A stretch of DNA of 64,000 nucleotides from Okamejei kenojei (GCA_035221665.1 CM069136.1:41602001-41666000); one strand, 5' to 3'; shown: positions 1,283 through 52,018, numbered from the stretch's first letter. A program made the numbers and translations. Notes: generated by a model from the sequence alone, not told the origin.

Positions 1283-1402
1283 GTATGTAGGAAGGAACTG
1301 CAGATGCTGGTTTAAGACAAAGATAGACACAAAATGCTGGAGTACCTCAGCATCTCTGGAGAGATGGAATGGGTGACGTTTCGGGTCAAACCCTTCTTCA
1401 GA
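1283..1402 (-). mobile_element. Short Penelope-terminus element with hammerhead-like core
   Basis: Reverse complement of 1375-1401 reads CTGAAGAAGGGTTTGACCCGAAACGTC, followed by the family tail ...CCAGCATCTGCAGTTCCTTCCTACA. Confidence 0.8.
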
Positions 1403-1624
1403 TGTTTGGTTAGCTTTGGTAGGGTTAGGGGAGAGGCACCTAGTTTGTGAGGCTAGTCTCCAGAAATCCCAGGCGTAAAGTGTACCTAGACAGGTGTAGG
1501 TTAAGGGCACGATCAGACCTTGTTGTGATTCATCACATTGTCAATATCTTTTGGCATTTCCCATCCAATCTTTTCCAAAAGTATGGATTTATGCCGCCAA
1601 CAGTTCAGACCTGGGAAGTGCTGC

Positions 1625-1831
1625 ATTTAGAAGTTATAGGAGTTTTAAAAATGTTTTCTTTTGTGCTAATGGCTGAGCCGGTGATATGAACACACAGGGT
1701 TACCAGTATATAACTTTTACTACTTGCGAACTTTGGGTGTATAACTAGTTGTTTCAGCGGCCAAGTTGATTCAGTATTCTGCCACACAGCCCTTGATGGG
1801 TTTTTGGCCTTCTGAACATGTCGTATGTTTG
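1625..1831. repeat. Unclassified ~200 bp segment, copy 1 (copy 2 at 4362-4552)
   Basis: Both copies share TTTAGAAGTT..GGAGTTT, TAATGGCTGAGC, ATGAACACACAGGGTTACCA, GTATTCTGCCACA, CCTTCTGAACATGTCG.ATGTTTG. Confidence 0.85.
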
Positions 1832-1924
1832 CACTACAGATTGCGGCTTTCTAAACATACAGATTATCAATGGAAGCGGAAGTTTTCTAAAATACAGTGT
1901 CACACTTTAAATCAGTTAATTTGA

Positions 1925-2022
1925 GTCTGAAGAAGGGTCTCGTCCCGAAACGTCACCCATTCCTTCTCTCCAGAGATGCTGCTTGTCCCACTGAGTTGCT
2001 CCAGAATTTTATGTATATCTTC
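1925..2022 (+). mobile_element. Short Penelope-terminus element with hammerhead-like core and TSD
   Basis: Core CTGAAGAAGGGTCTCGTCCCGAAACGTC at 1927-1954; direct repeat TCACACTTTAAAT at 1900-1912 and 2021-2033. Confidence 0.85.
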
Positions 2023-3166
2023 ACACTTTAAATAGTTGGGTAGATAGTCAATCAAGTCCATTCTTATTGTATCAACCACACCATCACGTTAGTGTTTTGG
2101 TGTTTTATTTTGAACAGACCACTTGTTGCTTAATTGACCATTGACATTAATTTAAATACAAATGAAATTTTGGAGAAATTTAGAATGAATTGCTAAATCA
2201 AAATTGCCTATTTTACGCTAATGCCCCGTCAAAATTGCATCCAATCTCTCCATTAAATAAATGTATTTTTAGGCTTTCTAGGACTAGCAAGGCATTTCAT
2301 CTCAGTTATTGACAAGATACTTGCATATTAATCACCTCAAGGAAGTAACTATAAAATGTATTTTTTTTAAAGTTATTAGTATGCTATGAATTTTAACAAA
2401 TGTTTAACTATTTTTTTAAATGCGAGAGTTGCAGTACAAGTGGCTATTATGACGAGATTATTTTTAGACTTGGTAGCTTTAGCAGTAAAGCTGATGAACA
2501 ATGGAGCAGTATTCTGAGTGTCCTTCGGCCAATACAATGAAAGCTGTCAGTTTGTGGATCTGGTCACCATTAATATGTCTGGTACCATTGGCACTTTGGC
2601 ACAATAGCTGGAAATTGACACAGTGGCTCCACTCTTTCCTAATTTTCTTACGATCATTTTATATCTTTAGAACAACACAATCTGATATTTATCTGCAGAT
2701 TTGTTTCTGTGTCATTGTTTCTGATAACCAAATAGTTTTATCACCAATTTTAAAAACAAGTTAAATAGCTCCTTGTAATATAAATCAACAGAAACTGAAG
2801 GATAATTAATTGATTTGATTTATCACACTAACATGGGTGTAAGTTGTTAGGAAATGGAAATGTTGCAAAGGGATTCTCCAATTTCGTGCTACTTCCCTTT
2901 GCCCCTTTAAATTCTTGGTTGCTGAAGTGGAATATGTAACTAAGTAAATTTAATTATGAACTGTTAGGTTTTCAAATACATTTGGAGGTCAATGCTTCCC
3001 AGTCATAGATTTGCTCCTAGTGTTTCCTTCCCCTTTACAGTGTAGATTACACCAAATAAATGCAAATAATTTGTGAATTACTTGAATGTAAAGTTTCAGG
3101 AAACTTGCATTTGCTCATTTTTAAATAAGGGATGTGAATGTCTATGCTATTCATTCAGTTGCGATT

Positions 3167-3530: not shown

Positions 3531-3559
3531 CTCTCTTTACTTGAATCTTTACTTGTCAA

Positions 3560-4040
3560 TCTGAGGCGCTGGTAGAATTCTTAACTTGGAGCTTGAAAGC
3601 TGCATGCTGAGAAACGAGGTTATACATTTGGCCATTGTGCAATACTGAGAAACAGCTGCAATGTGTTTTGACGGAGACCTTAAACCTGGGCTTTGCGTGC
3701 ATGTTAAAGTAGATATTTAATGTTTCACTGCACTTTTCAGGAAGAACAGAGGAATTATTTTGTCTGAAGTAAGCTCTCGACCCGAAACGTTACCCATTCC
3801 TTCTCTCCAGAGATGCTGCCTGTCCTGCTGAGTTACTCCAGCATTTTGTGTCTATCTTCGTTTTAAACCTTCCTACAGAATCATTCTGTTGTCTGCCCAA
3901 CATTTATTTCTGAGCAACTTTAAAAAAAACTGGTTATTATCTCATTGCTATTTGTGTGATTTGTTGTATCCAAATTAATGATGCTACTTGCCTACATCAT
4001 TATGGTCATTGCATATATTTATTTAAAAAAAAGCTATTTG
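3560..4040 (+). mobile_element. Degraded Deu-domain SINE (SacSINE1/AmnSINE1-like), interrupted by a hammerhead element
   Basis: GTGCAATACTGAG, GGAGACCTTAAACC, GAAGAACAGAGG and TTATCTCATTGCTATTTGTG resemble the Deu-domain SINE consensus as I recall it. Confidence 0.5.
3762..3877 (+). mobile_element. Short Penelope-terminus element, degenerate core
   Basis: CTGAAGTAAGCTCTCGACCCGAAACGTTACCCATTCC followed by the family body. Confidence 0.8.
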
Positions 4041-4595: not shown

Positions 4596-5005
4596 GAGTA
4601 TGATTGTGGCCCTGATATTTCACAATTGTTCATGCACTGCAAAGACTTTCCTGTCAGACATAGATTTCCACATCCTGCAGATGTGGGTTGATGACTTTGG
4701 ATCTCCCAAGCATGGAAACTTTTTTGTGATGTAGTGAACAATTTTCATACCATGGACAAGTGAGGGAGGGGCTAGAGTTTCAAAGATCGAGAACAAAAAA
4801 AATTTAGTCAATTTTCACAAGATGGGCTTGGATGATATGACACTCTGGAGGGGCAGTAATTTAGGTTTGACAATAGAATAACAAAATTACAGAATAACAA
4901 TCTTGTGTGCACCAAGTGTTTGCATGGCTTCAAAGTTAAATATTCTGGGCTACTTCTTTGGGGCTTGGAAAACAGGGCGTGTGAAAGACCAGATATTGGC
5001 TGGTA

Positions 5006-5208
5006 GACAAAAAATGCTGGAGAAAATCAGCGGGTGAAGCAGCATCTATGGAGCGAAGGAAATAGGCAACGTTTCGGGTCGAAACCCTTCTTCAGACTGA
5101 AACGTTGCCTATTTCCTTTGTTCCATAGATGCTACCTCACCTGCTGGGTTTCTCCAGCATTTTTGTCTACCTTCGATTTTCCAGCATCTTCAGTTCCTTC
5201 TTAAACAA
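5006..5208. mobile_element. Fold-back (inverted pair) Penelope-terminus insertion with 15 bp TSD
   Basis: Arms ~5002-5075 and ~5099-5171 are near reverse complements; AGATATTGGCTGGTA at 4991-5005 and 5209-5223; minus-strand core CTGAAGAAGGGTTTCGACCCGAAACGTT at 5068-5095. Confidence 0.9.
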
Positions 5209-9000: not shown

Positions 9001-9170
9001 TGCAACCTTTGCATGCACATGATCATCAGCCTTCTTGCGGACTGCATCTGCCTCCATGGGACTTGACTAATTGAGTTCCATTCAAATGCTGCCTCTCCTG
9101 CTCCGCACATTAATTTGCTTCAGAAGGTCTTTTTAAATGCTGGTAGTGGAGGACTTTTCATCCCACTTGA

Positions 9171-13942: not shown

Positions 13943-15588
13943 ATTTTCTTTGGTTAGGTTTCCATTTTCAGTTGCGTGCCATGAAGTCTTTTGAAATACA
14001 TAAGGTATTCCGGTTTCAGGAATGTGACTTACGGCACTCCTAAGCGACGGCACAGTAAGAGACATGTCCCCAGTCAGGACGGTGTGTAACTTGTAAGAGT
14101 AACCTGAAGGTGATAATGTTCCCACATAGCTGCTTCCTTTGTTTACTTGGATTGTGGTAGAGATGGGAATTAGTAGTAATATGTTGTACTGATATATTTT
14201 GGTTCTGCAGCAAAGTGTGTGACAACAGGGGCAATTTATGATCCCTTCAGTATAGTAAGCCAGATACTTTCATACAGCTCTGTACTGGGGTGAAGTGCAC
14301 TCCATCAATGCTCACATTATTTCTAATTATGTTTCGGAATTTGCTAGTTCGTACCATCTGCAGTGATGAATGAAGGTCAACTTTCTGGCTGATTCCACTT
14401 CCTTTGTCACTGTCAGCAATGGTTAAGAGTTTCTCTTTTGTATTTGCAGAACTGTATAACTAAATGGAAAGAAAATATGCCACTCCCTGTAATACTATGT
14501 TCAATGATGGCTTGTGGTTCTGTAGCGTGGGAAAGCACTTTGAGATTACTCGCCTCCAACCAGCTATAAAGTAAGATAGGAACAAATCCCATTAACTCAC
14601 TGGTGATGAGGCTGTGCCCAAGGAAAGTGTGGCGAGCCTGGGAGAAAAGATTTCCCTAAATTCCGAGGTAATCAATTATTTTATTCTGCATCCACCTAAA
14701 AGAAGATAGGAAGACAAAGGGCAGCTAAACTGTTTGTAATTTGCACACGTCATCTGCTGCATGCTGTTGCCAGTAGCGGCGTTTGTACAGAGCTGATGAA
14801 TGGCTTTGTAGTTGCACAGCAAGCCCCTCCCTGCCAGTGACAGATTGGAAGTCAGGAAGTTTTTTCTATTATTACACTCTCTTCCTTCACATTGTTTTGC
14901 TCCTCAGATCTCCACAGGGCTGCAGGATCATGCAGTTAGATTACATTCACACCAGATCCTGCCGCCTCCAAGCGCTCACTTTTTAAAAAGATTTAACTGT
15001 TCACTTTATGATCATTAATGTCCTCTGCAGTGGAAAGTACTTTTCACCATTTATCAATGATGACTTTTTTTTAGACAGACACATTTGACTTCTATGCAGG
15101 ATTCTTGCAACTTTTCTGACTGCAAGATCCTCAAGAACATGAAGCTTTTGCTGCTTCTCGAACAGTTTTTGCTTTTTGAACAAGAAGCTTTTTGCGCTTT
15201 TGCACATTCTAGGTAGCACCCACATACAAGGTAATGCAGCTGACTTGCACTCCAATAATCCTTAGTTTTAATTTTTAAAAGCTATCTGCAATTTCTATTG
15301 AAATCTCAGGTTTGCCTTTCTTAGTGTAAAGTGTTGTTCTTTCAAGGCTATTTGTTCACCCTGTGCTGTTTTTGGTATCCGTTAGGAGAGTAACTTTAAA
15401 TTGAAATTAATTTAGACATTTCCCGGTAGTACCTTGTAGTCCTTCTCTTGAGACCAGGAAGTCACTACAAATTTGGGCAACATCATTCAGAATCATTGTG
15501 TGCTGCAAATTGTGCAACAGTGTAGTGCGATGCATTGTGGTGGGAACTTCTCTTCTCAGTGAAACCTGTGCTTTTAATGTAATTAAAA

Positions 15589-16220
15589 TGAACTGCAGAT
15601 GCTGGTTTATACCAAAATATTAGATTAACTCTGCGGGTCAGGCAGTATGTCTGGGTGAAACTGGATAGGCGACATTTCAGGATCCTTCTTCAGACCAAAG
15701 ATCCTATAGAGGAGCAAGATAGATCACTCCTGCTAAATGCAATGGGCTGACGTGTAGTATGCAATGGAACGGAACATGGGCCTTTTTTTCATCCATTTCC
15801 GTAACCGGACCGGACCCGACCCGACCCGACTCGCAATGTAATTAACGGTGCGGGGGAACAGTTTGTGTTAATAAATTAAAATTCTGAACATGAGGAGAAG
15901 AATTTTACCAAATAACTTTTATTTTTACGAGGATGTTTCCATAACCGGCTTCCGTCTCCGCACGATTATTCTATGGGATCTTGGTGTGGAGACGGAAGCC
16001 GGTTATGGAAATGGGACCTTAAATTACCCATGAATCGGCCCATGACCGTACTACGTCTTTTTCGTCGAGTGGACTATCTTGCTCGCTATAGCATCCTTGC
16101 TTCAGACTGATTCTAGTGAGGGGGAGGGCAGAAACTGGAGGCAAGAAAACTAGGACAAATCAGGGCTAGCAACAGGAGACTTTGGGTAAGGGGCATCCTG
16201 ATAGGCCAATTGTTGGCTTG
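15589..16220 (-). mobile_element. Penelope-terminus element split by a MITE
   Basis: GAACTGCAGATGCTGG...CCTTCTTCAGAC before the MITE; CTTCAGACTGA plus purine-rich 3' UTR complement after it. Confidence 0.75.
15696..16099. mobile_element. Non-autonomous DNA transposon (MITE), hAT-like
   Basis: ~33 bp imperfect TIRs CAAAGATCCTATAG..GAGCAAGATAG..CACTC / GAGTG..CTATCTTGCTC.CTATAGCATCCTTG; 8 bp TSD CTTCAGAC at 15688-15695 and 16100-16107. Confidence 0.85.
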
Positions 16221-17072: not shown

Positions 17073-17204
17073 GTCTGAAGAAGGGTCTCGACCCGAAACG
17101 TCGCTCATTCCTTCTCTCCAGAGATGCTACCTGTTCCGCTGGGTTACACCAGCATTTTGTGTCTATCTTTGCTTTAAACCAGCATCTGCAGTTCCTTCCT
17201 ACAC
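17073..17204 (+). mobile_element. Short Penelope-terminus element with intact core
   Basis: Full body ending TTCCTTCCTACAC; possible TSD AATATGGACCT 17037-17047 / AACATGGACCT 17205-17215. Confidence 0.85.
17075..17102 (+). ncRNA. Minimal hammerhead ribozyme-like motif (putative)
   Basis: CUGAAGA-A-GGGU(CUCG)ACCC-GAAAC-GUC: both conserved core blocks, stem II and an NUH triplet; stem I only partly paired. Confidence 0.6.
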
Positions 17205-19117: not shown

Positions 19118-19251
19118 GGCTGAAGAAGGGTCTTGACCCAGAAAGTCACCCATTCCTTTTCTCCAGAGATGCTGCCTGTCCTGCTGAGTTACTCCAGCGT
19201 TTTGTGTCTTATCTTAGGTGTAAACCAGCATCTGCAGTTCCTTCCTGCACA
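19118..19251 (+). mobile_element. Short Penelope-terminus element
   Basis: CTGAAGAAGGGTCTTGACCCAGAAAGTCACCCATTCC plus family tail. Confidence 0.85.
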
Positions 19252-20632: not shown

Positions 20633-20765
20633 ACGCACAGGAGACTACAGATTCTGCAATCTTGAACAAAAAAAGTAGCTTGTGGAGGAACTCAGCAGGT
20701 CAGGCAGCATCTGCGGAAGGAAATGGACAGTCTCGCTTTGGGGCGTGACTTTTCATTTGAACTGG
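20633..20765 (-). mobile_element. Older Penelope-terminus element
   Basis: GGAGGAACTCAGCAGGTCAGGCAGCATCTG family body; core eroded. Confidence 0.65.
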
Positions 20766-27941: not shown

Positions 27942-28160
27942 AAGATAGACAAAAAAATGCTGAAGTAACTCAGCGGGACAGGCAGCATCTCTGGAGAGAA
28001 GGAATGGGTGATGTTTCAGGTCGAGACCCTCCTTCAGATTTTCATGTCTCAATCCTGAAATGTCACCCATTCCTTCTCTCCATGGATGCCTGTCCCGCAG
28101 AGCTACTCCAGCATTTTATGTCTATGGTGTAAACCAGCATCTGCAGTTTCTTCCTACACA
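27942..28160. mobile_element. Fold-back Penelope-terminus insertion
   Basis: GGAGAGAAGGAATGGGTGA..TTTCAGG and CCTGAAA..TCACCCATTCCTTCTCTCC are inverted arms. Confidence 0.85.
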
Positions 28161-28991: not shown

Positions 28992-29770
28992 CAAGTCAAG
29001 TGAAGTGGAGTTTATTATTATGAGGTACTGATGCAGTGAAAATCCTGCTTGCAGCAGCATCCCAGGCACACAGACCCAGACAAACACAGAAAAGTATAAA
29101 TTATACCTTAATTATACCTAAATTACATGTACAATTCTACAAGACAGAAAAATAAAAACAAAGCATTGCAAAGAAAATATGTTAGTGCAAAACACAATTA
29201 GATAAATAAACAAGTCCATGCTAGTACATGAGGTGGCTTGCATTCATTGTAGGATTAGGGTTGTGTTGCTTGGATCATGAACCAGATAGTTGCAGGAAAG
29301 ACAAACAATTCTGGCATAACTCAGCATCTCTGGAGAGAAGGAATGGGTGACGTTTCGGGTCATGACGGGTCTGAAGAAGGGTCGCGTCCTGAAACATCAC
29401 CCATTCCTTCTCTCCAGAGATGTTGCCTGTCTTGCTAAACTGGCATTTTCAGTGTCAATTTTCAGTTTAAACTAGCATCTGCAGCTCCTTCCTACACAGT
29501 TATAGGAATATAACTATTTCCGAAACTGGTACTAGGCAACTTTAGATTTCTATACCTCCTGTCTGATGGAAGCAATGATATATGCTGTGTACTTGAGGCA
29601 GCGTCTCATGCAGATAGATGCTCATGATTGTGGGTAGGGCTGTGCCCATGATGGACCAGATTGAGTCCAACACTCTCTGTAATGGTTTGTTTTCCTGTGT
29701 GTTGGAATGTGTGACAAGGCCATGATGCAAGAGATCAGGATACTTTAGTGGCATATTTGTAGATGTTTTA
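28992..29770 (-). mobile_element. Rex1/Babar-like LINE fragment interrupted by a hammerhead element
   Basis: ORF 29542-29817 contains LQRVLDSIWSIMGTALPTIMSIY; (CAAGT)n plus TTTATT tail at ~28992-29018. Confidence 0.65.
29299..29497. mobile_element. Fold-back Penelope-terminus insertion with TSD
   Basis: Plus core CTGAAGAAGGGTCGCGTCCTGAAACATC at 29371-29398; inverted arm ~29322-29360; AGTTGCAGGAA 29288-29298 / AGTTATAGGAA 29498-29508. Confidence 0.85.
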
Positions 29771-31738
29771 TATTTTTGCTGTGTTCTGACTGCCCCTTTT
29801 TCAATACATATTTTCAATGTTATGAATTCACTGCATATTTTAGAAGCTAGAGATTAGAAGCTTACTCAGCACGTCGCAAAATGTTATAAATTATTACTTT
29901 TACAGATTGTGACGCAGACTTTACTGACCAATTCACAGAAGCTTTACAGTTGAGTAGTCAAACTGAAGTTAGCCACTTGATGATGTCCCTGGGATAACTT
30001 TAACACACTATGACTGGAGAATAGAGAACAATTTGCAGCTAGACAAATCAATTTTGCTGAGTGCTTCTTCTCGGACTGGTTTGTTCCTTGGATTGTGTCC
30101 ACAGGTCTCTGCAGTTCTTGGGTGCTTTGTTCTTTGTAATTCATCGAGTCATGCCATCAAGAGTTGGTAGTTGTCAGTAGGTTAACATCTAACACCATTC
30201 CAGCTTTCACCGCTGCTGGTTTGCATGCCGAGCCCCGACCCCCTGTGTGCATGTTCTAGAAGATTCCAGCAATTGTTTGTCCCCCCCTGGAGAAAGAGTA
30301 AAGAGTTCTTCTGACTGTCTGGACAGTAGACTTTGTTCAGCTAACAGCACAGATGAGTACTTCATGTTATTTCCTGTTTGTGAGAACCTGGTATTCAACA
30401 AAAAAATGTCATCGTTCCAAGCTGAAAGCTAGTTTCAATATCCAGCTGGTTCCCATAACAAAACTCATGGAATCATGCAGTAGCAAGAGCCAGTATCTTG
30501 TGGAGAGAAGCAGAATATTCTCCATCATTTCCATCTTCCACTTATTTTCCATCTTCCACTTATTTTCCCATGGAATAAAGTGATGATACAATGGAGAGTA
30601 TTTTGCTGGTTTTAAATATTGTAACATCCTTTATGCTGCACAAGATATTTATAATCTTGACACAGCCTATTCTGCAATGCTCAACTATCTAATTGTATAT
30701 TGTCTTGGTTTGTTGGATTTCTCTTCACAAAGTTTTTGTTTCCCAGTAACTATTCCAGCATTTATGTTTTTGATCAGTGAAACAGAACATTTTTTTATTT
30801 TGCACTCCTCTACCAATCAAAAGGATTATGTGCATTCAAGGGTGGCCAAGACTAATTAAAGCTGTTTTGCTAATGAGTTGAAATTTATGCATAATCTGAG
30901 TTGTTGATGTAGATTCCTGGTTCCTTTCACAGGTTACTTGTTAATAAATCAATGATCAAGAAATGTATACCCAATGGGTGACTTTGGATTGGGAAGAGGA
31001 ATTAAATGTTTAAAGATGTGAAACCTTAACCTGCCAAGAACCTGCATTCTTCAATCTAAACCTTTGTGGGTTTCAAAGAACAGGAAGGAACCCTACACTG
31101 GAGAGGCACATCACTCATCGACATGAACATGTACACAAAGTTCTATATCTGATATTTCGGCAGCTATCTAAATTTAATTCTGGTCAGTTGGAATTCCGGG
31201 GGCGATGTAATCCACCTGGCTGCCTGTTAGAAACAGAGAGAGAATACAGCCTTAGTGACGTTTTCTGCTAAACATTATCAGAAGGTCTATGATCCGGTCA
31301 CTTCTAGATTTTTCTCCACTAATGATACTCCCCGGCTCACAATATACAGAAAATGTGTTGCTCTTGCATGCTGCCTTACTTCCCAGATTGCATGCATTAG
31401 AAGCAGCGATTTTTCCACCCTGCTTCACCATTCAGTACCTTGATGATTGACTCATGTCTACTTTCTCGCCTATATCCATTGATTCCCTTAGTTTCCAAAG
31501 ATATACTGATCTCTACTTTGATGACGCGCAAAGGATTGACAGCCACACCAATCTGGAATATCAACATAAAATGCGAAAAACACTTAGCAAATCATACTTT
31601 GGCCTGAAACATTTACTCTGTTTCTCTTTCAACAGAGGCTGTCTGACCTTCTAAGTGTTTCCAGCATTTTCTGGTTTTATTTTGGATTGCCATCCTCTGT
31701 AAAAAAAAAAAAATTTCCAATTATAACATTCAAGATGT

Positions 31739-32267: not shown

Positions 32268-32349
32268 GGGTACACAAAAGGCTGGAGAAACTCCAGCATC
32301 TAAGGAGCGATGGAGATAGGTGACGTTTCGGGTCGAGACCCTTCTTCAG
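32268..32349 (-). mobile_element. Minimal (~82 bp) Penelope-terminus element with intact core and TSD
   Basis: Reverse complement of 32322-32349 = CTGAAGAAGGGTCTCGACCCGAAACGTC; ATATCAATCCCA 32256-32267 / ATATTAATCCCA 32350-32361; body matches the 44034-44160 subfamily. Confidence 0.88.
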
Positions 32350-33099
32350 ATATTAATCCCACTCAATTTCTCTTCTTGAAGCAATCTTTTTAAACTTTGA
32401 ATATAACGTATTAATGCTGCACTGCCGCCAAAATGCATCTTTGTTTGGCTACAATTACAGGGTTTCAGGTGTGATGTTACAAAAGCCCTTTGCAATTACA
32501 GGAAGATGCCAACTGACCTGCAATAAAGGCCAGCTTTCCATCTAGTTGCTTGCTGCACTGATACGTTAACCTCCAAAGAAGTAACAAGTTTCATTCCTCA
32601 AGAATATTTCCTCCCAATCCCAATCCTTAAATACTCAGGAATAGAATCTTGGAGTTAAAGTAAACAATTGACTGGCAGAATGGAGTTCTGTACTTTCACC
32701 ACCCTTGTGTGTCTAATTGTTTTAATTCAAACCCTTTTCTTCTAATTTCCAAGGAATACAGTTTAGTCACTTGTTATAGTTTAGCCCCGTTGAGGTATCA
32801 TTCTGGTAAATCTATGTGCCACTAGGTTTTCAGAAAGTGGGAGTTCTAAAATGTTCCCAGTGCTACAAGCGTTTTGCACAGTTGTGACTTTTAACTTGCA
32901 GTCGTCCAGCATTTCATTAGACTATTAATATTTATTTTTATTCTTGACATTTTAATAATCTTGGGGTGAATGATCGTCAGTTGTTGTGAAATTTCACTTT
33001 CAAGTTTTCATAATTTATAAAGCATTTTGTTCTATCTTTTTATTGGGTCCAAAGTGAACAGCCTTACATGTGCCTAGACAGACAAACATTTCCCATAGT

Positions 33100-33895
33100 T
33101 AGAGCAAAAACAAAGTTCCGGAGGCCAGACAGCATCTGTAAGAGGAAATTGTCAGGCGTCACTTCAGGTTGGGATCCTTCTTCAGACTGATGGGGTGGGG
33201 GGGTTAAAGTTGGACCAGAGAGGTAGGAATAGGGCAAAGCTTGGCAAAGTGATAGGTGGAGACAGGTGAGAAGTTGATCGGCAGATAGATGGAGTAACTG
33301 ACAAAGGCTAGAGATGAAAAGGAGACAAATAGTGTGTAGGATAAAGGAAGAAGATGAGAAGTGAAACACAAAAGGGAGGGATATGCATTGAAGAGAAATA
33401 GGGGACTTAGAGATGGGAGGGATGACCAATGCACTTAAGGAGGAAGGACAAGGAACCTGGTGGCGGGATAAATGTGTTCACACCTTGGTGTGTGGGGGAG
33501 GAGGGTTTAATATGAAATTGGAGAATGTAATATTCAAACTGTTGGGATGTAGGCTACCCAAGCAAAATATAGGGTGCTGTTCTTCTGGTTGGCATGTGCC
33601 CTTTGACAGTGGGGGAGGCCAGGGATAGAAATGTAGGCATGGAAAAAATGGAAAGCGGAACTAGGTGGGAATGGGAAGTTGTGACTGGTATTTGGATTAT
33701 GCTGAAGGTGACATTATCAGTCTCTGGCATCTTCATTTACCATTGTTTATTTGGACAGACAAAGTTTCAGACCAGGTCCACTTCTTCAGATGGAAGGATC
33801 CTGATGTGAAACATCATCTGTCCATTTCTCACCACAGATTCTGCCTGATCCACTGAGCTCCTCCAGTTGATTTTTATCTGCAGTCTCTTGTGTCT
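33100..33895 (-). mobile_element. Degraded Penelope 3' region (GIY-YIG end and UTR) with an inverted terminal copy
   Basis: CCTTCTTCAGACTGA at ~33176-33190; GCTACCCAAGCAAAATATAGGGTGCTGTTCTTC matches the complement of the EEQHLIFRLGSL region. Confidence 0.65.
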
Positions 33896-34567
33896 TCCAT
33901 CGGTTAGTTTTTCTTTGTTCACTTAAAACTATTCATACCTGTTGCGATTTATTCTATATTAACATTGCCTGCAATGCCATCTATCTTTGATCCGGCAGAA
34001 TGGAATTTGTTGCTTTCCATCCAGGTATTTAAGTTGTACAGTAACATACTCAATATTTTCAGCACAAACCCTTTGTGGGAAGAATCATCTCTTCTCCTGT
34101 TTAAATTGAACTCAGACAGCTCTTTAAGAATATGTGATTGAAATGTGGAGTGTAATCTGTGTACATAATCCTATCAACAGAAGAGATCTATGTATGTGTT
34201 TGAGCAAATAACCTTTGAGACACTGCTTTCTTGAACCAGAGCCAAGGTGTATTTAACCTTTTAACAGCTTAGAAATAACACTTTTCATCACCCATCATTC
34301 CTTTTCATTTGCATTGTTTTCCTTTCTATGAATGGTTGTGTAAACTTCTCTTTTTACATTTTCTCTTTTAAAATTTTCCCTCCCGCTTTATTTGTATGTT
34401 AACTTGTTTTTCTTCTCTTGTTCCTCAGTATTCAGTTTTGTAATCCTCAATACCCTGTATCCTCGATTAGCTCAAAGTGCACCCTCTCAGGGGCCCAGAG
34501 ATTCATCTGCATAGCAGTGGCAAACAGGCGTTGTGCAGACAAAGATAACATTAATGTGGCGTTAACC

Positions 34568-35660
34568 GGGAAACTGCAGCTACTGAAATCTGGAGTTGTA
34601 AACAAACGGCTGGAGGAGCTCAGCAGGTCAGGCAGCATCTGTGGAGGGAATGGGCAGACGATGTTTTGGGTCGGGACCCTTCTTCAGATTAATGTAGTCG
34701 GAGAAAGAATGGTGGAAAAGAAAAAGGTGGGGTGGGGCAAAGCCTGGCAAGTGATGGGTGGATACTGGTGAAGGGTGATCATTGGCAGAAGCTTGGATTG
34801 GGTGACAAAGGCTCAAGTTGAAAACAGGTGAGGGCTCCATCCATGGAGGTGGGGTGGGGAAAGCCACTGAAGACTCCATCTACAGTGGCAGAGGGGGGGG
34901 ACGGAGCACATTGTTGTGGATGAGTTCTTACCCATGATTTTTCTGTGTCCCGCAGTTCTGCTTTCGCTCTCCCTCCTATTTAGACAGAACAAAGATAGAG
35001 ATCCCCTGGAAGACACCTTTCACCCCACCAGCTTCTGCATCCAACACATCATTCTCTGACATTTCCGCCACCTTCAGCATGATCGCACCACCAGTCACAT
35101 CTTCCCATCCCTACCCCATTCCGCAGAGACCACTCTCTCCATCTCACCTTAGTTTGCTCATCCATTTTCATCCAGCCCATCCGCTCCTCAGGCACCATCC
35201 CGCAGGAGATGTAACACCTATTCATACACCTCCTCTCTCACTTCCATCCAGGGGAACCCAGTCATCCTATTTAAGACAGAAATTCCAACTTTAAGGCAGA
35301 TCTTCCAACTTCATCTATTTGCTTCGGAATTCCCGATATGTCGGCCTTTACATCGCAAATCCAGGCGTAGACTAGGGAACCATCTCGCTCAACACATCCT
35401 CTGTCTGCCAAAGCCTGCTGGAACTCCAGGTTGAGAAGCATTTTAATTCCCTTCCCATTCCCGACAGAACTTTCTGTCCTTGGTCTTTTTCACTGTCAGA
35501 TTGAGGTCACACACACAAACTGGAAGAACAGCACCTCATATTCCGCTTGCGTAGCTTGCAACCCAATGGTATTTACATTACATCCTCCAATTTCCAGTAA
35601 TGCACCCCCATCTCCCCTCTTTCTCATGTTCCCATGCCCGCCTCCAACCTAACCCCAGAT
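34568..35660. mobile_element. Degraded Penelope element: minus-strand terminus plus plus-strand GIY-YIG region
   Basis: Minus-strand core at ~34660-34687; TTTCACCCCACCAGC and GGAAGAACAGCACCTCATATTCCGCTTG collinear with 43200-43750. Confidence 0.75.
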
Positions 35661-36504: not shown

Positions 36505-36812
36505 ACATAGAACAATTGGATGAAAGGTATGCAAAAGGACAAATCACAGCCAGCAACGATGATCAAGGAAACCACTTTTTCCTTGGTCATCATTGCAGGC
36601 CTCCACCTTTCCTTGATTATCATGGCTTTGATTTGTTTTTTTACATGCTCTATGTTGCCTTTCCTATCTCCCCTGACTCTTGGTCTGGAGAAAGGTCTCG
36701 CCCCAAAACGTCACCTATTCCTTTTCTCCAGAGATGCTGCCTGACCTGCTGAATTACTCCAGCTTTTTGTGCCTATCTTCGGTGTAAATCCGCATCTGCA
36801 GTTCCTTCCTAC
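36505..36812 (+). mobile_element. Penelope 3' UTR/terminus with short inverted 5' part
   Basis: CTGGAGAAAGGTCTCGCCCCAAAACGTC degenerate core plus full family tail. Confidence 0.75.
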
Positions 36813-36959
36813 TTATTCTACAATTACTTTGGTTGCTCTGTTGTACTACAGAGTTATTTAGGTCCATCCACCATGGTCACCTGGAGTTTCCAGTTCTAGC
36901 CATTTCACTTATCCCTCCCCAGTGCCACACCGACCAGTTTGTCCTTAGTTTCATCTCTG

Positions 36960-37320
36960 CCAGGGTGCAAACTAAAGGAACAGCTGCTCATATTACACCT
37001 CAATAGTCTACATCCCGACAATGTGAACATTAATTTATCTAATGTCAGGTAACAGCCTTAGTTGATATCTCCACCACTTTGACCTCCAAAGCATTGGTTC
37101 TGACTCCTTCCAAGAATCCACCCCTCTGTATCTGGATCCACCAATAAATCCGCTGTGTTTATCTCTGGCTATCTACTCTCCACTCGTTCTGTCCAGGGCA
37201 AGGGTCTTAACCCGAAATGGCAATGGCCGATTTATCTCCACGGATGCTGCCTGACCCATTGAGTTCCGCCAGCCGTTTGTTTTTTGCTCCAGATATCCAG
37301 CATCATTATTCTTTTGTGTC
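36960..37320 (+). mobile_element. Older Penelope 3' fragment
   Basis: GGAACAGCTGCTCATATT (EQ.LI) and AGGGTCTTAACCCGAAAT, GATGCTGCCTGACCC. Confidence 0.6.
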
Positions 37321-40233: not shown

Positions 40234-41525
40234 CCACTTGCAATATGTAGTTACAATGTTGCACAAATCTTCATTGTTCTAAATTTTCATTTGGCTTTCT
40301 GTGGCCCTTTAAGTTGCTGTTTGATAATGAGGTTTAATACATTAAATGAGCACTGGTCACCCACAACATTGAAGTGCAGTCTAAGGGATAAAATGGTGCA
40401 TCCTGTGAATTTTAATTTTGCTTATCTGCACAAACTCTGTCAAGACCAGTAAATCTGGGACTGTAGAGTGTGTCAGAAAATACCTATCATTTGTTGGGAA
40501 GTGACATTTCAGCAGTTCCTTGAACTATTTATAGACTTCTGCTTGAAATCAAAGAAGCGAAGGAAAGGAAAACCATTTTGAACATGTTAAGTACATTTGC
40601 TAAACTTGTTGCCACTGCCAAATGAAACTGGATTTTGGATTGGACTCAAGAATTGAAAGACTTTTGTTTGGCATGGACATGTAGAGTGTGTGTGTATCCA
40701 CATATGGGTGTATTTTCCAAATCTGTGCAACAGAACCTGGGTCTCTTATCAACTTAGATTTTTTTGCCATTGGCCAACTGCATACTCATTTAAATCCATA
40801 TTGTACTAATGTGCAAAGAGGCTTCTCCTGCTCTTTAGACATGGAAGCAAGTCATCAGTGATCCAGGTGGACTTCCTAAGAAGAAGACTTCAGTTTCTTA
40901 CTTCCTCTGCTATAATCGTTCATTATCTCGTGACCTAAAGCACGTTTCGTTTTTATGCTCTCAATCTTTGGGGAACGGATAATGATTCACCCATTGATAA
41001 TACTTTCCAACGCCTGTTTTATTTGACTTGTGCATAACATTTAATGACATCACACCAGAAGCTTATTCATTGAACCATTGGAAACCATAAGTATGAATGG
41101 CTTTCAGAAGGGATGATTCAAAATCAGAGAAACTAGGAGCATGGACTAGAAAGTACTAGAAAGTGCAGTCAGGATAGCTGTGGAGATTAGTGAGCTTGTA
41201 ATGGGAGTTTTTGTTTTCTTTTCCTGTTCTTCTTCTATACCTTACTTATCCAGGTTAGAGGTTGTTAATCAGCTTTTGATACGCTATCTCAGTCATCATC
41301 TATTTTCTCTTTGTCTCCAAACTACTATGGCCATTCGATTATTTCTTCCCACTCCTCCCACTTATCCCCTACTCCTCTTTTAAATTTTCCCAACTCTGGT
41401 CATAATTCTGAAAAACTAATTCCATTTAACTCTAAGTACGTGCTGCATGACCCATTGGGGGTGGCCTTGGGCTTTTTTTTTAATTTAACCAAGCAGCAAC
41501 ACAGACAAAAGGATGGCATGTTTAA

Positions 41526-41900
41526 GGGGTATAGAAGAGACCTTGGTGAGAGCCTCATCTATAGTAGAAGAGGGGATGCCCTCTCCGATGCCCTGGTGTG
41601 GAACACCTCATCCTGGGGGCAGATGCGGCGTAGTCGGAGGAATTGGGAGTAGGGGATGGAGTCCTAAAAGGAAGCAGAGTGAGAAGAAGTGTAGTCCAGA
41701 TAGCCATGGGAGTCAGTGGGTTTATAGTGGATGTTGGTCAGTAGTCTATCATCTGCGATGGAGACAGTGAGGTCAAGAAATGGTAGGGAAATGTCAGAAA
41801 TTGTGTATTTGAGTGCCGGATGGAAGTTAGTGTTGAAATGGATGGAGTCAGTGAGTTGTGTGTGGGTGCAGGAGGTAGCACCAATGCAGTTATCAAGGAT
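41526..41900 (-). pseudogene. Penelope (Neptune-like) reverse transcriptase fragment
   Basis: Hand translation ILDNCIG...FHPALKYT..SLPFLDLTVSI....LTNIHYKPTDSHGYLDYTSSH...*DSIPYSQFLRLRRIC; catalytic YxDD eroded, internal stop. Confidence 0.85.
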
Positions 41901-42856: not shown

Positions 42857-42864
42857 TATTAAAT

Positions 42865-44161
42865 TGTCTCACCATCTCTATTGCAGGAGATACACTCCTG
42901 ACCGACATCCACTACAAACCAACTGACTCCCATAGCTGCCTGGACTACTCTTCCTCCCACCCTGCTTCCTGTAAGGACTCCATCCCCTATTCCCAATTCC
43001 TCCGTCTACGCCCCATCTGCTCCCAGGATGAGGTGTTCCACACCAGGTCATCACAAATGGCCTCATTCTTCAGAGAACGGGGATTCCCCTCCCCCACTAT
43101 AGATGAGGCTCGTACCAGGGTCTCCACCATACCCCGCAACACTGCCCTCTCTCCCCATTCCCCCACTCGCAAACAGGGCAGAGTCCCCCTGGTCCTCCCC
43201 TTTCACCCCACCAGCCGGCAAATACAACACATAGTCCTCTGCCAGTTTCGCCACCTCCAATGTGACCCCTCCACTCGCCACATCTTCCCATCTCCCCCTC
43301 CCTGTCTGCCTTGCGCAAAGACCGCTCCCTCCGCAACTCCCTTGTCAATTCTTCCCTTCCCTCCCGCTCTACCCCTTCCCCGGGCACTTTACCTTGCAAC
43401 CGCAAGAAATGCTACACTTGTCCCTTCACCTCCTCCCTCCACTCTTTCAGGGACCCAAGCAGTCCTTCCAGGTCCGACAGAGGTTCACCTGCACCTCCTC
43501 CAACCTCATCTACTGCATCCGCTGCTCCAGATGCCAGATGATCTATATCGGTGAGACCAAGCGGAGGCTTACGATGTTTCGCCGAACACCTCCGCTCGGT
43601 CCGCAATAACCAAGCCAACCTCCCGGTGGCTCAACACTTCAACTCCCCCTCCCATTCCGTATCCGACCTCTCGGTCCTGGGCCTCCTCCATGGCCAGAGT
43701 GAGCAACACCGCAAGTTGGAGGAACAGCACCTCATATTCCGCTTGGGGAGTCTGCATCCTCTGGGCTTGAACTTTGAATTTTCTCAATTCTGTTAACCCT
43801 TGCTGTCTCCTCCCCTTCCCACCTCTCCCTCAGCCCTCGGGCCCTGGCATTCCCTCTCTCTCTATCTCCCTCCCCCACCCTAGTCGCACTAGCTTCTCAT
43901 TTTCACACCACAAACAGCTTACAATGGCTTGTTCCCTATATCATCGATACTTTTTTGCATATCTTTCATTCAATTGTTCTTTATCTCTCCACACCACCGT
44001 CTATATCTCTCGTTTCCCTGATCCCTGATCAGTCTGAAGAAGGGTCTCGACCCGAAACCGCCTATCTCCTTCGCTCCTTAGATGCTGCTGCACCCGCTGA
44101 GTTTCTCCAGCCTTTTGTGTACCCTCGATTCTCCAGCATCTGCAGTTCCTTCTTTAACAAT
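42865..44161 (+). mobile_element. 5'-truncated Penelope-like element (RT thumb, GIY-YIG endonuclease, 3' UTR with hammerhead-like motif)
   Basis: HYKPTDSHSCLDYSSSHP, SIPYSQFLRL, CNRKKCYTCP, FTCTSSNLIYCIRCSRC..IYIGETKRRL, PVAQHFN, RKLEEQHLIFRLGSL.P.GLN-stop 43796; frameshifted; TSD ATATTAAAT 42856-42864 / 44162-44170. Confidence 0.92.
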
Positions 44162-47120: not shown

Positions 47121-47220
47121 GAGTCTGAAGAAGGTTCTCGAACCGAAACGTTACCCATTCTTTCTCTCCAGAGATGCTGCCTGTCCCGCTTAGTTACTCC
47201 AGCTTTTAGTATCTATCTTC
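47121..47220 (+). mobile_element. Short Penelope-terminus element with compensatory stem II and TSD
   Basis: CTGAAGAAGGTTCTCGAACCGAAACGTT at 47125-47152; TTCAAATCAACATGC 47102-47116 / TTCAAATTAACATGC 47218-47232. Confidence 0.88.
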
Positions 47221-47532: not shown

Positions 47533-47658
47533 TGTGTAGGAAGGAACTGCAGATGCTAGTTAAAATCGAAGACCGACACAAAATGCTAGAGTAACGCAGC
47601 GGGGCAGGCAGCATCTCTGGAGAGGAATGCCTGACGTTTCAGATCGAGACCCTTCTTC
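47533..47658 (-). mobile_element. Short Penelope-terminus element truncated inside the core
   Basis: TGTAGGAAGGAACTGCAGATGC...GACGTTTCAGATCGAGACCCTTCTTC. Confidence 0.85.
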
Positions 47659-47725
47659 TCACTCTTAAAATTATGGGTGAAAGTCATGGGACATTTTTTA
47701 ATGTAATGGCTGTCATTATTTAAAT

Positions 47726-47848
47726 ACAAGAAACTGCAGATGCTGGTTTACAAAAGAAGACACAAAGTGCTAAGGTAACTCAGTGGGTCAGGCAGCATTT
47801 CTGGAGCACATGGATAGGTGACCTTTCAGGTCGGGACCTCTCTTCAGC
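47726..47848 (-). mobile_element. Short Penelope-terminus element, variant stem II
   Basis: Reverse complement of 47820-47847 = CTGAAGAGAGGTCCCGACCTGAAAGGTC. Confidence 0.8.
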
Positions 47849-48790: not shown

Positions 48791-48794
48791 GCAC

Positions 48795-48921
48795 CTTACC
48801 CCTCACATGGAGGGAGTGGATGAGAACATGGGATAACATGGAACTAGTGTGAATGGGTGATTGATGGTTGGAGTGGGCCACAAGGCCTGTTTCCCTACTG
48901 TATCTCTAAACTAAACTAAAC
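48795..48921 (+). mobile_element. V-SINE 3' tail fragment
   Basis: GGGATAACATGGAACTAGTGTGAATGGGTGAT...GGCCTGTTTCC..CTGTATCT(CTAAA)n. Confidence 0.75.
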
Positions 48922-50294
48922 GAAAGAAAAGAAAAGAAAACATTGTGAAAGTCGTAAGGCAGCAGAAGAGTATTTAAGACATCTGAACGAACGTGAAAAC
49001 ATAGCCCAGCTTTGTCGGCACAGGTGGGCAGGTAATGAGCCAAGTATTATTGGTAGAAATAACTTGCAAACATGGCAGTAGGTTCCTGCAGTATTAAGCG
49101 AGGCTGGCAGTAAAACTGCAGAAACCAGCTGAATAACCTGTCATATTCCAATAGGACACAGGAGAAAAATACCAGTTCACTGCGCTCCCGCACAATTTAA
49201 CACTGCAATTGCAAAAGTTGTTCGTCCAGACATGCGAGTACAAGATGACAGCACATCATGTTCTGCTTTGGTAGCTTACAACCCGACAGTATGAATATTG
49301 AAACCTCCAACTTTAGCTAACAGTCAACGGTAGCACTACTCCAGCACTAAAGCACTTTTTTGTTGTAAACTAGCACCTGAAGTTTCATGTTTCTACATGA
49401 GTGATCCAGGTAAGGATAGGTTAAATGTAAAGATTACAAACAGGGTTTGAACCATATGCAGTATTCGATGTTGAATATTCAATCTACAACTGTAATGTAA
49501 TCTTGCAAGTACATCTTGCTTTTGGGGTATCTTTAGCATAGAAATGCATGCTACGGCACGTTATGGAGGGATTAAAAATGATTTGATGGTGACGTTAGAG
49601 GAAGAAATGGAAAAATTGACGTTCAATAGGCCTATCAGTCAAAGAAAAGTGGAAAGATAAAATTATTCAGAGGTGAGAGTTCTAAAGAGCAGGAAGACCA
49701 AAGGTTTGTCATCAAATTAAAAGTCAAGCAAGTGGAAGATCTTATCACCTCACCTGCCTGGAGGTGCTGAGCTTTGAGGAGGTGGTGAGATGGTAGAAAA
49801 GCAGAGTGAGAGTTGATATTACATAAGAATATCAGAATTCTGGAGGTGACTACAAAAGGAGGGCGACTATGGAATGAATTTCAATTAAAGTTAGATTGTT
49901 AGAGGATAGGGAGCCAGCCAGTGCAAGTCATTGAAACGCCGTGGAATTTTAGAGCCTCATGTAAATTAATACAAGTACCATATAAAATGAATAAATGATC
50001 GTCGAGATTTAAACTGATAACTCCTAACACTTCTCTGGAGTTCAGAATTCCATGCACAATCCAATCAGGAAGCAGCATTTGAAATTTCATTTCCTGTTTT
50101 AGGCAGTTTTATGGTAATTACTAACCTGATATTTTGCATTTCAAGTTTTTATTGAAAGAATAATGTTTATTATTCTCCCAGTGGTTGAGTAGATTGACCT
50201 ATTGATTAAAGAGCCTGTAAAACCAGCACATTTCAAGATTCCATTCCAGATGTGACTTCAGCCAAAGGAATAATGCTTGGTTCACTTTGGAACT

Positions 50295-50430
50295 GTGTAG
50301 GAAGGAACTGCAGATGCAGGTTTAATCCGAAGATAGTCACAAAAAGCTGGAGTAACTCAGCGGGACAGGCAGCATCTCTGGAGAGAAGGAATGGGTGACA
50401 TCACCCTGACACATCACCCATTCCTTCTTC
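50295..50430 (-). mobile_element. Penelope-terminus element with short fold-back, core deleted
   Basis: GAAGGAATGGGTGA / TCACCCATTCCTTC inverted around a short spacer. Confidence 0.8.
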
Positions 50431-51552
50431 ATTCCTTCATAGGACAGGTTAAGGGTGGGTTTCCTGGTGACACCCACATGCTGAAATGCAACAGTAAGAT
50501 GTAGGAGCAGGCCCAGAATAGAATCTTGGATATACCAACAGTATTTGCAGATCACTTGCAGGTATGCCTTTGGCCATTTGTGGAGAGAAAAGGATCAGAC
50601 TAGTAAAATGATGGATGAGAATGGAGAGGTACTGGTGGACGATGATGGGGTCGACAAATGGAGAGGTATGAGGGTGGATCAATTATTTTTTTAATCATAT
50701 TTATTTTTGGGGATATGGGTGTCACAGGCGAGTCCAGAATTTGTTACGCATCCTGAATAGTCCTTGAGAAGGTTAGGTTGGAGGCTCTTTGAGGAACAAC
50801 TCCAAACCTTCTGGTGTACTAGTGCCATAATAGCTTTGGACAAGGAGTTCCAGAATCAGAACCACTTGATAGCACTGTTGATGACTGAAGCTGTCATTAC
50901 TTTGCTGAAGATTGAATGTACGCTGACTGGGAGTAATGACCAGATTACTTTAGTCCTGCCATCTGTGGTTCTTGCTCACAATCAAATATTGGTAGTCACT
51001 TCAAGAGTACTTTCAGTGCTATTAGACAGCAGGAAACTTGGTTGGAAATTTCAGACAAGGAGTCCCAGGAAAGAAGTCCAAAATAATGGGAGGTGACTAT
51101 GCATTTAAAGCTTCTGGTAAGATTAGCCAGCATTACTATTCCTTATAACTACTGGTTTTGTGGCGAATGACTCAGTGGATAGACTTCAACAAAATTGCTC
51201 ATCGTCCACCACAGCAGTGACTCGGTTCAAGTCAATTATCTCGCAGTGGAATCTCTCCGTATTTCTGGGCTCTTTGGCTGCTTTTCTGTTAACCAGGTTT
51301 TGAGGGGCTCCTTTAGGGAAATGTCCTTTTTTAAGACTAGTTGAACTGCAGCACTCAAATTGAGCATCTAATCTCACACCCTCTTCAGTAAAATCTTGTC
51401 ACTGCTGTGTTATCGGCCACTTCTGGCCTCAGCCTTGACGAAGCCACTCTGATGCAGAAATCCCATCCGTATCTTTTTCACTTGCACATTCCCTTTCTAA
51501 ACGCTCCTATCCTAAGTAAACTTTGAGATCATCCAGCTCTCCTTTTTTCATG

Positions 51553-52018
51553 GAAGATAGACACAAAAAGCTGAAATAACTCAGCTGGTCAGGCAGCATT
51601 TCTGAAGAAAAGGAAGAGGTAACGTTTTGGGTCGAGACCCTTCTTCAGACTGAGAATAAGGGGAGAGAGAAATGAGAGATGTAGAAGGTACAAAGAAGAA
51701 ATGAATGAAAGGTATGCAAAAAACAATGATGCTCGAGGAAAGGTGGAGCTCACAATGGTCCATTGTTGGCTTGGGGAAAATGATAACAAGTTATACAAAC
51801 TGTGAAACTCAACAACATTGGGGATGATCAGCCATAATAACATTGAATGGCGGTGCTGGCTTGAAGGGCCGAATGGCCTACTCCTGCACCTATTGTCTAT
51901 TGTCAACAAGACTAGTGAAACTAGTACGATGACTGGGATGGGGGAGGGATGGAGAGAGAGGGGAGCAAGGGCTACTTGATGAGAGAAATCAATATTTATA
52001 CTGCTGGGTTGAAAGCTG
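51553..52018 (-). mobile_element. Penelope 3' UTR/terminus with nested CR1 tail
   Basis: Reverse-complement core CTGAAGAAGGGTCTCGACCCAAAACGTT at ~51621-51648; UTR similar to 43800-44030 and 36505-36680. Confidence 0.8.
51816..51902 (+). mobile_element. CR1-like 3' tail insertion
   Basis: GATCAGCCAT..CATTGAATGGCGG...CCTATTGTCTATTG; TSD TCAACAA 51809-51815 / 51903-51909. Confidence 0.85.

Follow-up and report, generated by a model that had tools for sequence, protein, structure and literature searches.

A dense family of short repeats with hammerhead-like cores in a 64,000-nt window of the Okamejei kenojei genome, related to the termini of Neptune-type Penelope-like elements

The 64,000-nt stretch of Okamejei kenojei DNA analysed here (GCA_035221665.1, CM069136.1:41602001-41666000; hereafter the window, to which alone all copy counts refer) harbours a dispersed family of short repeats, each built around a core resembling the hammerhead ribozyme. 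The context of this core is most complete at 42868..44159 (+), where a 1.3-kb, 5'-truncated Penelope-like element (PLE) of the Neptune type, with its endonuclease in several frames, is followed by a 3' untranslated region (UTR), the core and a tail, and is flanked by a 9-bp target-site duplication (TSD). The core itself (44034..44061, +) has a damaged triplet and lies in the parental context. Translation of the fragment revealed the PLE reverse transcriptase (RT) thumb (YKPTD...IPYSQFLRL), a linker containing CNRKKCYTC, which conforms to CX2-5CxxC, and a GIY-YIG endonuclease. Among 335 candidates compared with the RT thumb segment, 47 proved homologous at E<=1e-10, the best identified ones belonging to the batoids Hypanus sabinus, Mobula hypostoma and Amblyraja radiata, and several others possess RT plus GIY-YIG domains; by tblastn, the remnants of the open reading frame (ORF) also match RT+GIY-YIG proteins. 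The Pfam GIY-YIG match to the PLE ORF was weak (E=0.034, under the family cut-off), and neither the RT-thumb nor the linker pieces matched any Pfam family. The CX2-5CxxC linker is described as a signature of Neptune and Nematis (PMC8557442), and the vertebrate PLE clades reported are Neptune and Poseidon (bioRxiv 10.64898/2026.07.22.740005). Because of this linker type and the clades reported from vertebrates, the parent is assigned, as a putative member, to Neptune.

Further ORF remnants were located at 33493-33603, 34985-35618, 36978-37049, 41574-41897 and 49249-49314. The termini 33185, 37192 and 51648 adjoin such remnants, the UTR of 51648 being preceded by the final ORF codons, and terminus 34687 lies inverted against one. 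The 5' truncation, inverted termini and optional 30-40-bp tail seen here are Neptune traits as well. The Neptune-type Penelope parent proposed in an earlier reading of this sequence (hereafter the original prediction) is thus borne out by the ORF, UTR and linker beside the core at 44034, and the repeats are almost certainly the termini (pseudo-long terminal repeat, pLTR, plus optional tail) of several Neptune-type PLE subfamilies, made by the PLE machinery.

A search with the 28-nt core pattern, allowing up to three mismatches, gave 11 matches in the window compared with 0 in 100 dinucleotide shuffles. With a profile built from 17 copies, 39 segments were detected at E<10, of which 31, among them the 17 training copies, passed E<0.01; the top score among six reversed or shuffled controls was E=0.13. 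When the profile hits were grouped by eye, ~26 insertion events were obtained, or ~1 per 2.5 kb; together with attached ORF and UTR remnants, the repeats occupy 7,448 of the 64,000 bases. The repeat unit consists of the 28-nt core, a body of ~70 nt and an optional tail of ~35 nt. An intact CUGA-GA / GAAA / CG-U-H core with at least three helix II pairs is present in 6 of the 19 parsed copies, at 1401(-), 1927(+), 5095(-), 17075(+), 32349(-) and 47125(+). These are exactly the six cores, correctly positioned, that had been called near-intact in the original prediction, and the repeat family is present at every one of the twelve positions listed there as degenerate. Additional copies were found at 20754, 27385, 31601, 33789/33793, 37200, 50401, 55956/56064 and 60927, those at 55956/56064 and 60927 lying outside the range first given. 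The description of the family as non-coding units of 80-220 bp holds in so far as short solo copies exist, but several of the listed copies prove to be the 3' ends of longer PLE fragments (33185, 34687, 36685, 44034, 51648 and probably 15693).

Nine clear short solos were distinguished. Five of them, copies 1927, 17075, 32349, 47125 and 47660, account for all the TSDs above the swapped-flank null among the 14 units tested. The solo at 17073..17204 (+) is tailed, has an intact core and is flanked by an 8-bp TSD; those at 1924..2022 (+) and 47122..47220 (+) are tail-less, with TSDs of 13 bp and 15 bp (one mismatch), respectively, and both carry G in place of the parental C before AGT, the latter showing a two-sided change in helix II as well. 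The tail-less solo at 32268..32349 (-) belongs to the 44034 subfamily and has a 12-bp TSD (one mismatch) abutting the core, and the tailed one at 47533..47663 (-) combines a damaged core with an 8-bp TSD. The remaining solos are the tailed copy at 1283..1402 (-), with an intact core, a 12-nt internal deletion and no TSD found, the copy at 3762..3877 (+), with a deletion within the tail and a candidate 12-bp TSD (two mismatches, within the null), the tailed copy at 19119..19250 (+) and an older tailed copy at 47725..47848 (-), for neither of which a TSD was found. The 15 nt following the nine solos are 70% AT, compared with 59% window-wide, and TSDs were found in 2 of the 12 compound or long insertions. 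Since they have TSDs of their own and AT-rich sites, the short copies are true insertion events, as had been supposed. At the 5' junction of copy 17075 (window 17040-17074), ~27 extra nt were observed, which include a partial copy of the core start as well as a TSD segment in inverted orientation and suggest repeated template switching.

The 3' ends fall into two classes, ~95 or ~128 nt downstream of the core, and visual inspection of 28 arms gave 18 with a tail, 7 without and 3 that were unclear. Inverted pairs repeatedly unite the two classes, one arm being tailed and the other tail-less in those beginning at 5002, 27939 and 29296. In the pair at 5002..5208, which has a 15-bp TSD, a tail-less whole-core arm (-, 5095) stands head to head with a tailed arm (+) that starts from GAAAC; at 27939..28161, a tail-less core arm (-, 28037) is joined to a tailed arm (+); and at 29296..29498 a tail-less arm (-) is joined to a tailed core arm (+, 29371). 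The pair at 50293..50428 consists of a tailed arm (-) from just before the triplet and a 24-nt inverted piece. Self-primed fold-back as the sole origin of such pairs was considered and is less likely, because each arm of 5002..5208 and 27939..28161 has sequence absent from the other.

Longer and older copies are more complex. The old compound insertion at 33090..33898 (-) contains an inverted tailed terminus (33793+), a direct core (33789-), a deleted ORF remnant with the endonuclease C-terminus, the 3' UTR and a terminus (33185-), and in that at 34571..35640 a terminus with UTR (34687-) is inverted against a linker-endonuclease ORF remnant (34985-35618+). A tailed terminus that retains ~95-105 nt of UTR, accompanied by a UTR piece in inverted orientation, lies at 36509..36813 (+), an old copy with endonuclease C-terminus, UTR, decayed core and tail at 36930..37310 (+), and a tail-less terminus with UTR and the last ORF codons, holding another repeat inside (~51817-51904), at 51553..52030 (-). 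In the older terminus at 15575..15697 (-) the core is split by a 400-bp insertion, and TCAGT and the pyrimidine tract resume past 16105; copy 15693 had been treated as short and was transferred to the long class because of this later insertion. The inserted element (15698-16098) has imperfect terminal inverted repeats, an 8-bp target duplication and an inner hairpin (15936-16011), and judging from the duplication we take it to be a hAT-type miniature inverted-repeat transposable element. Old decayed copies were also recognised at 20640..20765 (-), with a possible 5-bp helix I, at 27280..27440, with an inverted fragment, at 31585..31690 (+), of a distant subfamily, and at 60842..61010, of the same distant subfamily and with a possible inverted partner. 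A tail fragment and an inverted fragment with unrelated sequence between them occur at 55903..56095, and an endonuclease C-terminus followed by a tail fragment, the core region being missing, at 49249..49398 (+). The PLE reverse-transcriptase fragment at 41512..41897 (-) is 85% identical to 42868-43064 and has no adjoining terminus.

As originally predicted, the core layout fits the published consensus of the minimal PLE hammerhead (PMC4209133), down to the additional base ahead of helix II and the ACGU palindrome; helix II comprises 4 bp. The outcome of descriptor searches depended on helix I. Without any helix I requirement, eight copies were matched in the window versus a mean of 0.07 in 30 shuffles, while the reimplemented published descriptor (helix I of 3-7 bp) matched only copy 29371, and five copies were matched at 2 bp or more. 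The 4-bp helix I of copy 29371, the sole case of this length, arises from the inversion junction. The stem I of 2-4 contiguous bp attributed to most copies was an overestimate in the case of the six intact ones, which have 1-2 bp. The Rfam comparison proposed together with the original prediction yielded no hammerhead family among seven matches at E<=1 in the window, these weak matches being six hits to miRNA families, mostly over inverted repeats, and IS009. An exact 25-nt pattern had no match in prokaryotic genome contigs, nor did blastn find any match among plasmids, and these searches thus yielded no copies from outside the window. Helices of 2 bp have been published for hammerheads of Culex, some Drosophila species and Oikopleura (PMC4209133), and for this reason a short helix I lowers, and does not exclude, membership of the PLE hammerheads. 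With a helix I of only 2 bp, catalysis by these copies would have to be regarded as unproven. In two decayed copies from old subfamilies, at 20735-20770 and 33155-33190 (-), helix I seems to be longer, with 5 bp in both 20761 and 33185 and a bulge in the latter, the youngest subfamily having 2 bp; it looks as if helix I may have eroded with time.

Within the main subfamily, the mismatch counts at non-CpG cells of 14 arms were 6/120 in the core and 72/874 in the body, the difference between the core and body plus tail having p=0.28, and CpG sites decay ~3 times faster than non-CpG ones. Because the core decays like the neighbouring sequence, the genomic copies look inert, their decay being neutral. 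When the majority sequences of three hand-assigned subfamilies were compared, 2 of 28 core columns differed versus 26 of 99 elsewhere (p=0.02). The core is thus better conserved across subfamilies than the rest of the unit, contrary to the outcome that the original prediction had named as damaging to it, and this conservation suggests that the master elements have kept the core. Covariation in helix II is slight, amounting to three cells with two-sided change, affecting two of the four pairs, a level equalled or exceeded in 44 of 500 shuffles.

The most conspicuous property of the short copies is their common 5' end. In 20 measurable arms (19 of the 31 profile hits, and 33789), 13 begin 0-5 nt before C3, seven extend ~90 nt or more upstream, and none ends in between, which corresponds to a stopping rate ~59 times higher at this boundary; with solos only, and long copies credited with just 90 nt, the boundary remains evident (p=6e-6). 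The long status of six of the seven long arms is supported by alignment over at least ~94 nt or by ORF sequence, and the 110 nt upstream of all 13 short arms gave scores within the null when compared with the parental UTRs. No arm begins at the cleavage site, the nearest one being 50401 at 3-5 nt before it. The parental sequence at the boundary runs from a pyrimidine tract through TCAGT into the core, and TCAGTCT agrees with YYANWYY, the consensus of initiators; a TATA-like word near -30 was found in 44034 only, the other long copies showing no conservation there. The two TSD-bounded copies 1927 and 47125 have G where the parent has C before AGT, and 47660 provides a third, ambiguous case inside its TSD. 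An extra G at the 5' junction is known as a mark of capped full-length L1 insertions (PMC11702581).

Trees were built from 28 arms (128 columns). The 13 rows labelled as short, two of which (27385 and 60927) later turned out to resemble old pairs, need 9 changes versus 9.6 for shuffled labels, and none of 200 bootstrap trees grouped them. Solo 32349, 82 bp long, forms a pair with the ORF-linked copy 44034 at a support of 98/93, and a grouping of nine clear solos against seven long copies was rejected at p-AU 0.036, a value that is only indicative because the solo subset was chosen after the tree had been seen. The stubs thus derive, in our judgement quite probably, mainly from PLE-type transcripts and not from a separate short master. 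An identical 11-12-nt deletion between GCTG direct repeats was observed in three arms of two subfamilies (1340-1360, 29310-29325 and 32285-32300), in one arm only of an inverted pair, and suggests slippage across a hairpin; it was dropped as a lineage marker because of this distribution. As for the features by which a short interspersed element (SINE)-like family might be recognised, a fixed 5' end and TSD-bearing sites of its own are present, but a lineage apart from the ORF-linked copies was not recovered on the tree, and ARAGORN called no tRNA gene in the window. The canonical type I hammerhead of retrozymes, with a full helix I and loop-loop contacts, is likewise lacking.

The original prediction saw in these units an independent, retrozyme-like parasite, a view that gained no support in the window: none of the 21 tandem-repeat rows involves the unit, short copies are mixed with ORF-linked ones, no 5' ends lie at the cleavage site, where those left by a processed or circular RNA intermediate might be expected, and the ends and inversions are of the type known from ordinary PLE insertions. 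The nearest same-strand cores, 47847 and 47660, are 187 nt apart and were considered as a tandem dimer, which was rejected as they belong to different subfamilies, are separated by unique spacer, and one has its own TSD.

It is likely that PLE termini are inserted by their own endonuclease and RT, and that the stubs represent run-off at the 5' end of the RNA. The GIY-YIG endonuclease would cut AT-rich DNA, leaving the 8-15-bp TSDs that are observed here; such cutting is established for PAc, a Poseidon element of Anolis. RT would start inside the RNA, ~95 or ~128 nt past the core, giving tail-less or tailed 3' ends, a cause suggested by analogy with PAc. A start near the 3' end of a long transcript would produce ordinary 5'-truncated PLEs, and a start at the 5' terminus copy would lead to run-off at the RNA 5' end after 80-130 nt, i.e. 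to stubs. The RNA is presumed to begin at the initiator-like TCAGT directly before the core, and the chances that the fixed 5' end is a capped RNA start seem about even; the copying of the cap at the 5' junction, as well as the state of the ribozyme, is deduced indirectly. Priming from both cut strands, presumably as twin priming, would yield the pairs joined head to head in which only one of the two arms is tailed. The template would not be self-cleaved, because the stubs retain the whole core, and the hammerhead would be maintained by selection in the masters, probably as a dimer-dependent or protein-assisted ribozyme.

A bolder version of this scheme can be offered only tentatively. The Neptune PLE of skates and rays would make a run-off cDNA of 80-130 nt, a counterpart of strong-stop DNA extending from the start sites at the tail to the capped start, which is integrated directly; the stub, which would contain the initiator, the ribozyme and the sites where RT starts, would then be re-transcribed and moved as a promoter-carrying, polymerase II-type SINE, reaching ~1 insertion per 2.5 kb as helix I shrank from ~5 bp in old subfamilies to 2 bp in the youngest, and would escape the published hammerhead descriptor.

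Several observations weigh against the preferred explanation. No full-length PLE is present in the window, neither the 5' terminus copy nor the ORF start being seen, and four of the nine clear solos have no TSD above the null. The count of 5' ends leaves out five junction partners starting inside the core, four old copies and three fragments, and the UTR homology of 15693, counted as long, is not above the null. The evidence for an extra G amounts to two clean cases and one inside a TSD, the other 10 short arms sharing 0-2 nt of parental upstream sequence or, in 5095, 5 nt that include the parental C. Short and paired arms outnumber long copies in the main subfamily, and since its branches form an unresolved star a short master could hide there. 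In addition, TCAGTCT also resembles a 3' splice site, the boundary coincides with the 5' foot of a predicted hairpin as well, and in predicted folding the probability of helix I is ~0 in all nine copies, the core being paired downstream.

It is conceivable, if rather doubtful, that the stubs form a non-autonomous SINE-like family which retains a promoter for RNA polymerase II within the unit, is transcribed from short genomic copies and depends for its movement on a Neptune protein that acts in trans and needs only the terminal RNA. The fixed 5' end, the TSDs, the high density and a main subfamily consisting mostly of short or paired arms would all fit, and precedents exist in the internal promoter of D. 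virilis Penelope (PMC2377424), in the pLTR sequences reported to be enough for trans-mobilisation in Adineta (PMC3846280) and in the non-autonomous PLE derivatives of Chlamydomonas (PMC8557442). However, short copies stand beside ORF-linked ones in several subfamilies, as S32349 does with L44034, the short-only clade was rejected, the 11-12-nt deletion defines no lineage, and no tRNA gene was found. The boundary might instead be a strong RT stop, at a hairpin or through cDNA fold-back, on a long RNA containing the 3' UTR; here the origin of the repeats would be the same, and we regard this as comparably unlikely. The competing hairpin joins the core to sequence 15-28 nt after the triplet in 9 of 9 folded copies, with mean pairing probabilities of 0.43-0.99, and this predicted inactive form is preferred both as monomer and as short dimer. 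Its 5' foot falls at -1 to +1, the start of most short arms, and 84% of its cells are able to pair across 17 copies, but two-sided changes occur in 0 of its 11 pairs, and a stop of this kind leaves the G in place of C unexplained. Moreover, RT usually pauses on entering a hairpin from the 3' side, not after leaving it, which counts against this cause.

A 3' splice site at the boundary (pyrimidine tract, CAG/T), with the stubs made from spliced RNA having a very short first exon, seems improbable, more so than either of these. Such an exon might also lengthen helix I, in D. virilis Penelope helix I of the hammerhead is where the intron ends, and U-rich sequence with AG lies just upstream in many of the PLE hammerheads published in the same paper (PMC4209133); in the window, the upstream pyrimidine fraction is 0.65-0.85 in six long copies, against a 95th percentile of 0.67. 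Yet the short arms have no upstream sequence in common beyond GAG that could serve as first exon, and in a search of 157 candidates none of the five database proteins containing the translated terminus clearly joins host exons there, a result by which the splice and start-site readings are not separated. The shortening of longer insertions by later deletion or pLTR recombination is very improbable: solo pLTRs without TSDs have been ascribed to recombination or deletion in Adineta (PMC3846280), and large deletions did affect the old copies 33090-33898 and 49249-49398, but TSDs directly flank stubs of 82-130 bp and random deletion would not yield a single common 5' boundary. A retrozyme whose RNA cleaves itself, becomes circular and is then copied into DNA, as single units or in tandem, would share with the repeats a type I hammerhead-like core and sequence in common with the pLTR, and both pLTR-related retrozymes in Xenopus and retrozymes in the one chondrichthyan sampled have been reported (bioRxiv 10.64898/2026.07.22.740005). 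Against it stand the absence of the unit from all 21 tandem-repeat rows, the 187-nt neighbours of different subfamilies, one with its own TSD, a hammerhead that is minimal and not canonical, and 0 copies permuted at the cleavage site, so that we consider it the least credible of all.

The window contains other features besides the PLE termini. One frame of the terminus at 17075-17203 (+) stays open over 43 codons. The translated sequence occurs in predicted proteins, for example at the N-terminus of a Rhinoraja gene model, which is probably annotation leakage of the repeat. The broken ORF of a non-LTR retrotransposon at 10042-12016 (-) matches Pfam RVT_1 (E=3e-24), has a cysteine-rich C-terminus and is presumably L1/Tx1-like, and at 61131-62242 (-) lies the 3' half of the ORF of a long interspersed element (LINE; RVT_1, E=3e-14), which we take to be CR1-like; 3' ends related to the latter recur at 3177, 7764, 36390, 51817, 61044 and 63683. 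A second abundant short repeat family is represented at 13166-13474, 13655-13943, 21864-22133, 31738-31933, 39932-40242, 42750-42865 and 60518-60897, and presumably resembles the tRNA-derived HE1 SINE of sharks and rays; ARAGORN called no tRNA. A GC-rich minisatellite with a ~22-bp unit, higher-order periods and several open frames on both strands is situated at 44509-45390. The elements at 52483-53032 and 53668-53880 are bounded by long inverted repeats, have similar outer ends and are possibly non-autonomous DNA transposons. Two repeats are present in two copies each, 1625-1831 / 4362-4552 (~2.7 kb apart) and 8024-8097 / 9116-9189 (~1.1 kb apart), and may derive from exon duplication or be conserved elements.

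The literature already describes hammerheads in PLE termini, as well as lone copies, inverted pairs, TSDs and optional tails of 30-40 nt. Minimal PLE hammerheads were described as mostly single motifs, probably tied to truncated PLEs, with opposite-strand pairs 100-700 bp apart and with ~4,000 motifs in coelacanth and 9,000 in Xenopus (Cervera and De la Pena 2014, PMC4209133). The present repeats share with them CUGANGA, the extra nucleotide, the G10.1-C11.1 pair of helix II, GAAA, the palindromic ACGU for helix III and UH, as well as the pLTR location, the predominance of single dispersed copies and the nearby opposite-strand pairs; they differ in helix I (2 bp, compared with 3-7 bp in the published descriptor) and in a helix II of 4 bp. 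No cartilaginous fish is found among the species of Table S1 and Fig. S3 of that paper. Neptune-clade PLEs (Craig et al. 2021, PMC8557442) have the same RT, CX2-5CxxC linker and C-terminal GIY-YIG with CCHH, and the same 5' truncation, inverted pLTRs and 30-40-bp tail at one end, but the window contains no full-length copy, and a sharp 5' pile-up was not found in the available part of that description. Adineta PLEs are likewise reported to have pLTRs in inverted orientation, a tail on one side only and TSDs of 8-10 bp (PMC3846280).

In PAc (Frangieh et al. 2024, PMC11167929), RT starts at two internal sites, and the sequence separating them is the tail; cutting and extension affect both strands of the DNA, the RNA used as substrate is mainly uncleaved, and cleavage by the hammerhead requires the presence of the protein. 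The resemblance to the window copies extends to two RT start sites bounding a tail ~100-130 nt past the hammerhead, AT-rich targets and an uncleaved template. PAc belongs to another clade, however, its ORF starts in helix II, where the window copies have no ATG, and it was assayed in vitro, whereas the window copies are known from sequence alone. Retrozymes, defined as tandem arrays of at least two head-to-tail units, each with a hammerhead (PMC7229834), are, in the case of the animal non-LTR ones (PMC7229834; bioRxiv 10.64898/2026.07.22.740005), likewise short, non-coding and pLTR-related, with a type I hammerhead; theirs are tandem, with typically canonical hammerheads and circular RNAs, whereas those in the window occur as scattered monomers or are joined head to head in pairs, and bear TSDs and PLE tails. 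A literature search, to which most subscription papers were out of reach, returned nothing on the present family or on a 5' pile-up of PLE hammerheads, and no paper linking the hammerhead ribozyme and elasmobranchs was found in the literature searched; the available part of a recent ray and skate genome preprint (10.1101/2025.06.08.657570) does not mention Penelope. The repeat family may nevertheless be catalogued elsewhere already.

To the class described in 2014 this family adds a very dense natural record of PLE insertion. Since its 2-bp helix I hides it from Rfam and from the published descriptor, the number of ribozymes in cartilaginous fish may be underestimated. Should the fixed 5' end indeed be an RNA start, the stubs would provide in vivo support for the internal initiation shown in vitro for PAc; they would map the 5' end of the transcript beside the ribozyme and show that insertion proceeds from uncleaved RNA, and the question of what purpose the hammerhead serves in PLEs would become easier to test.

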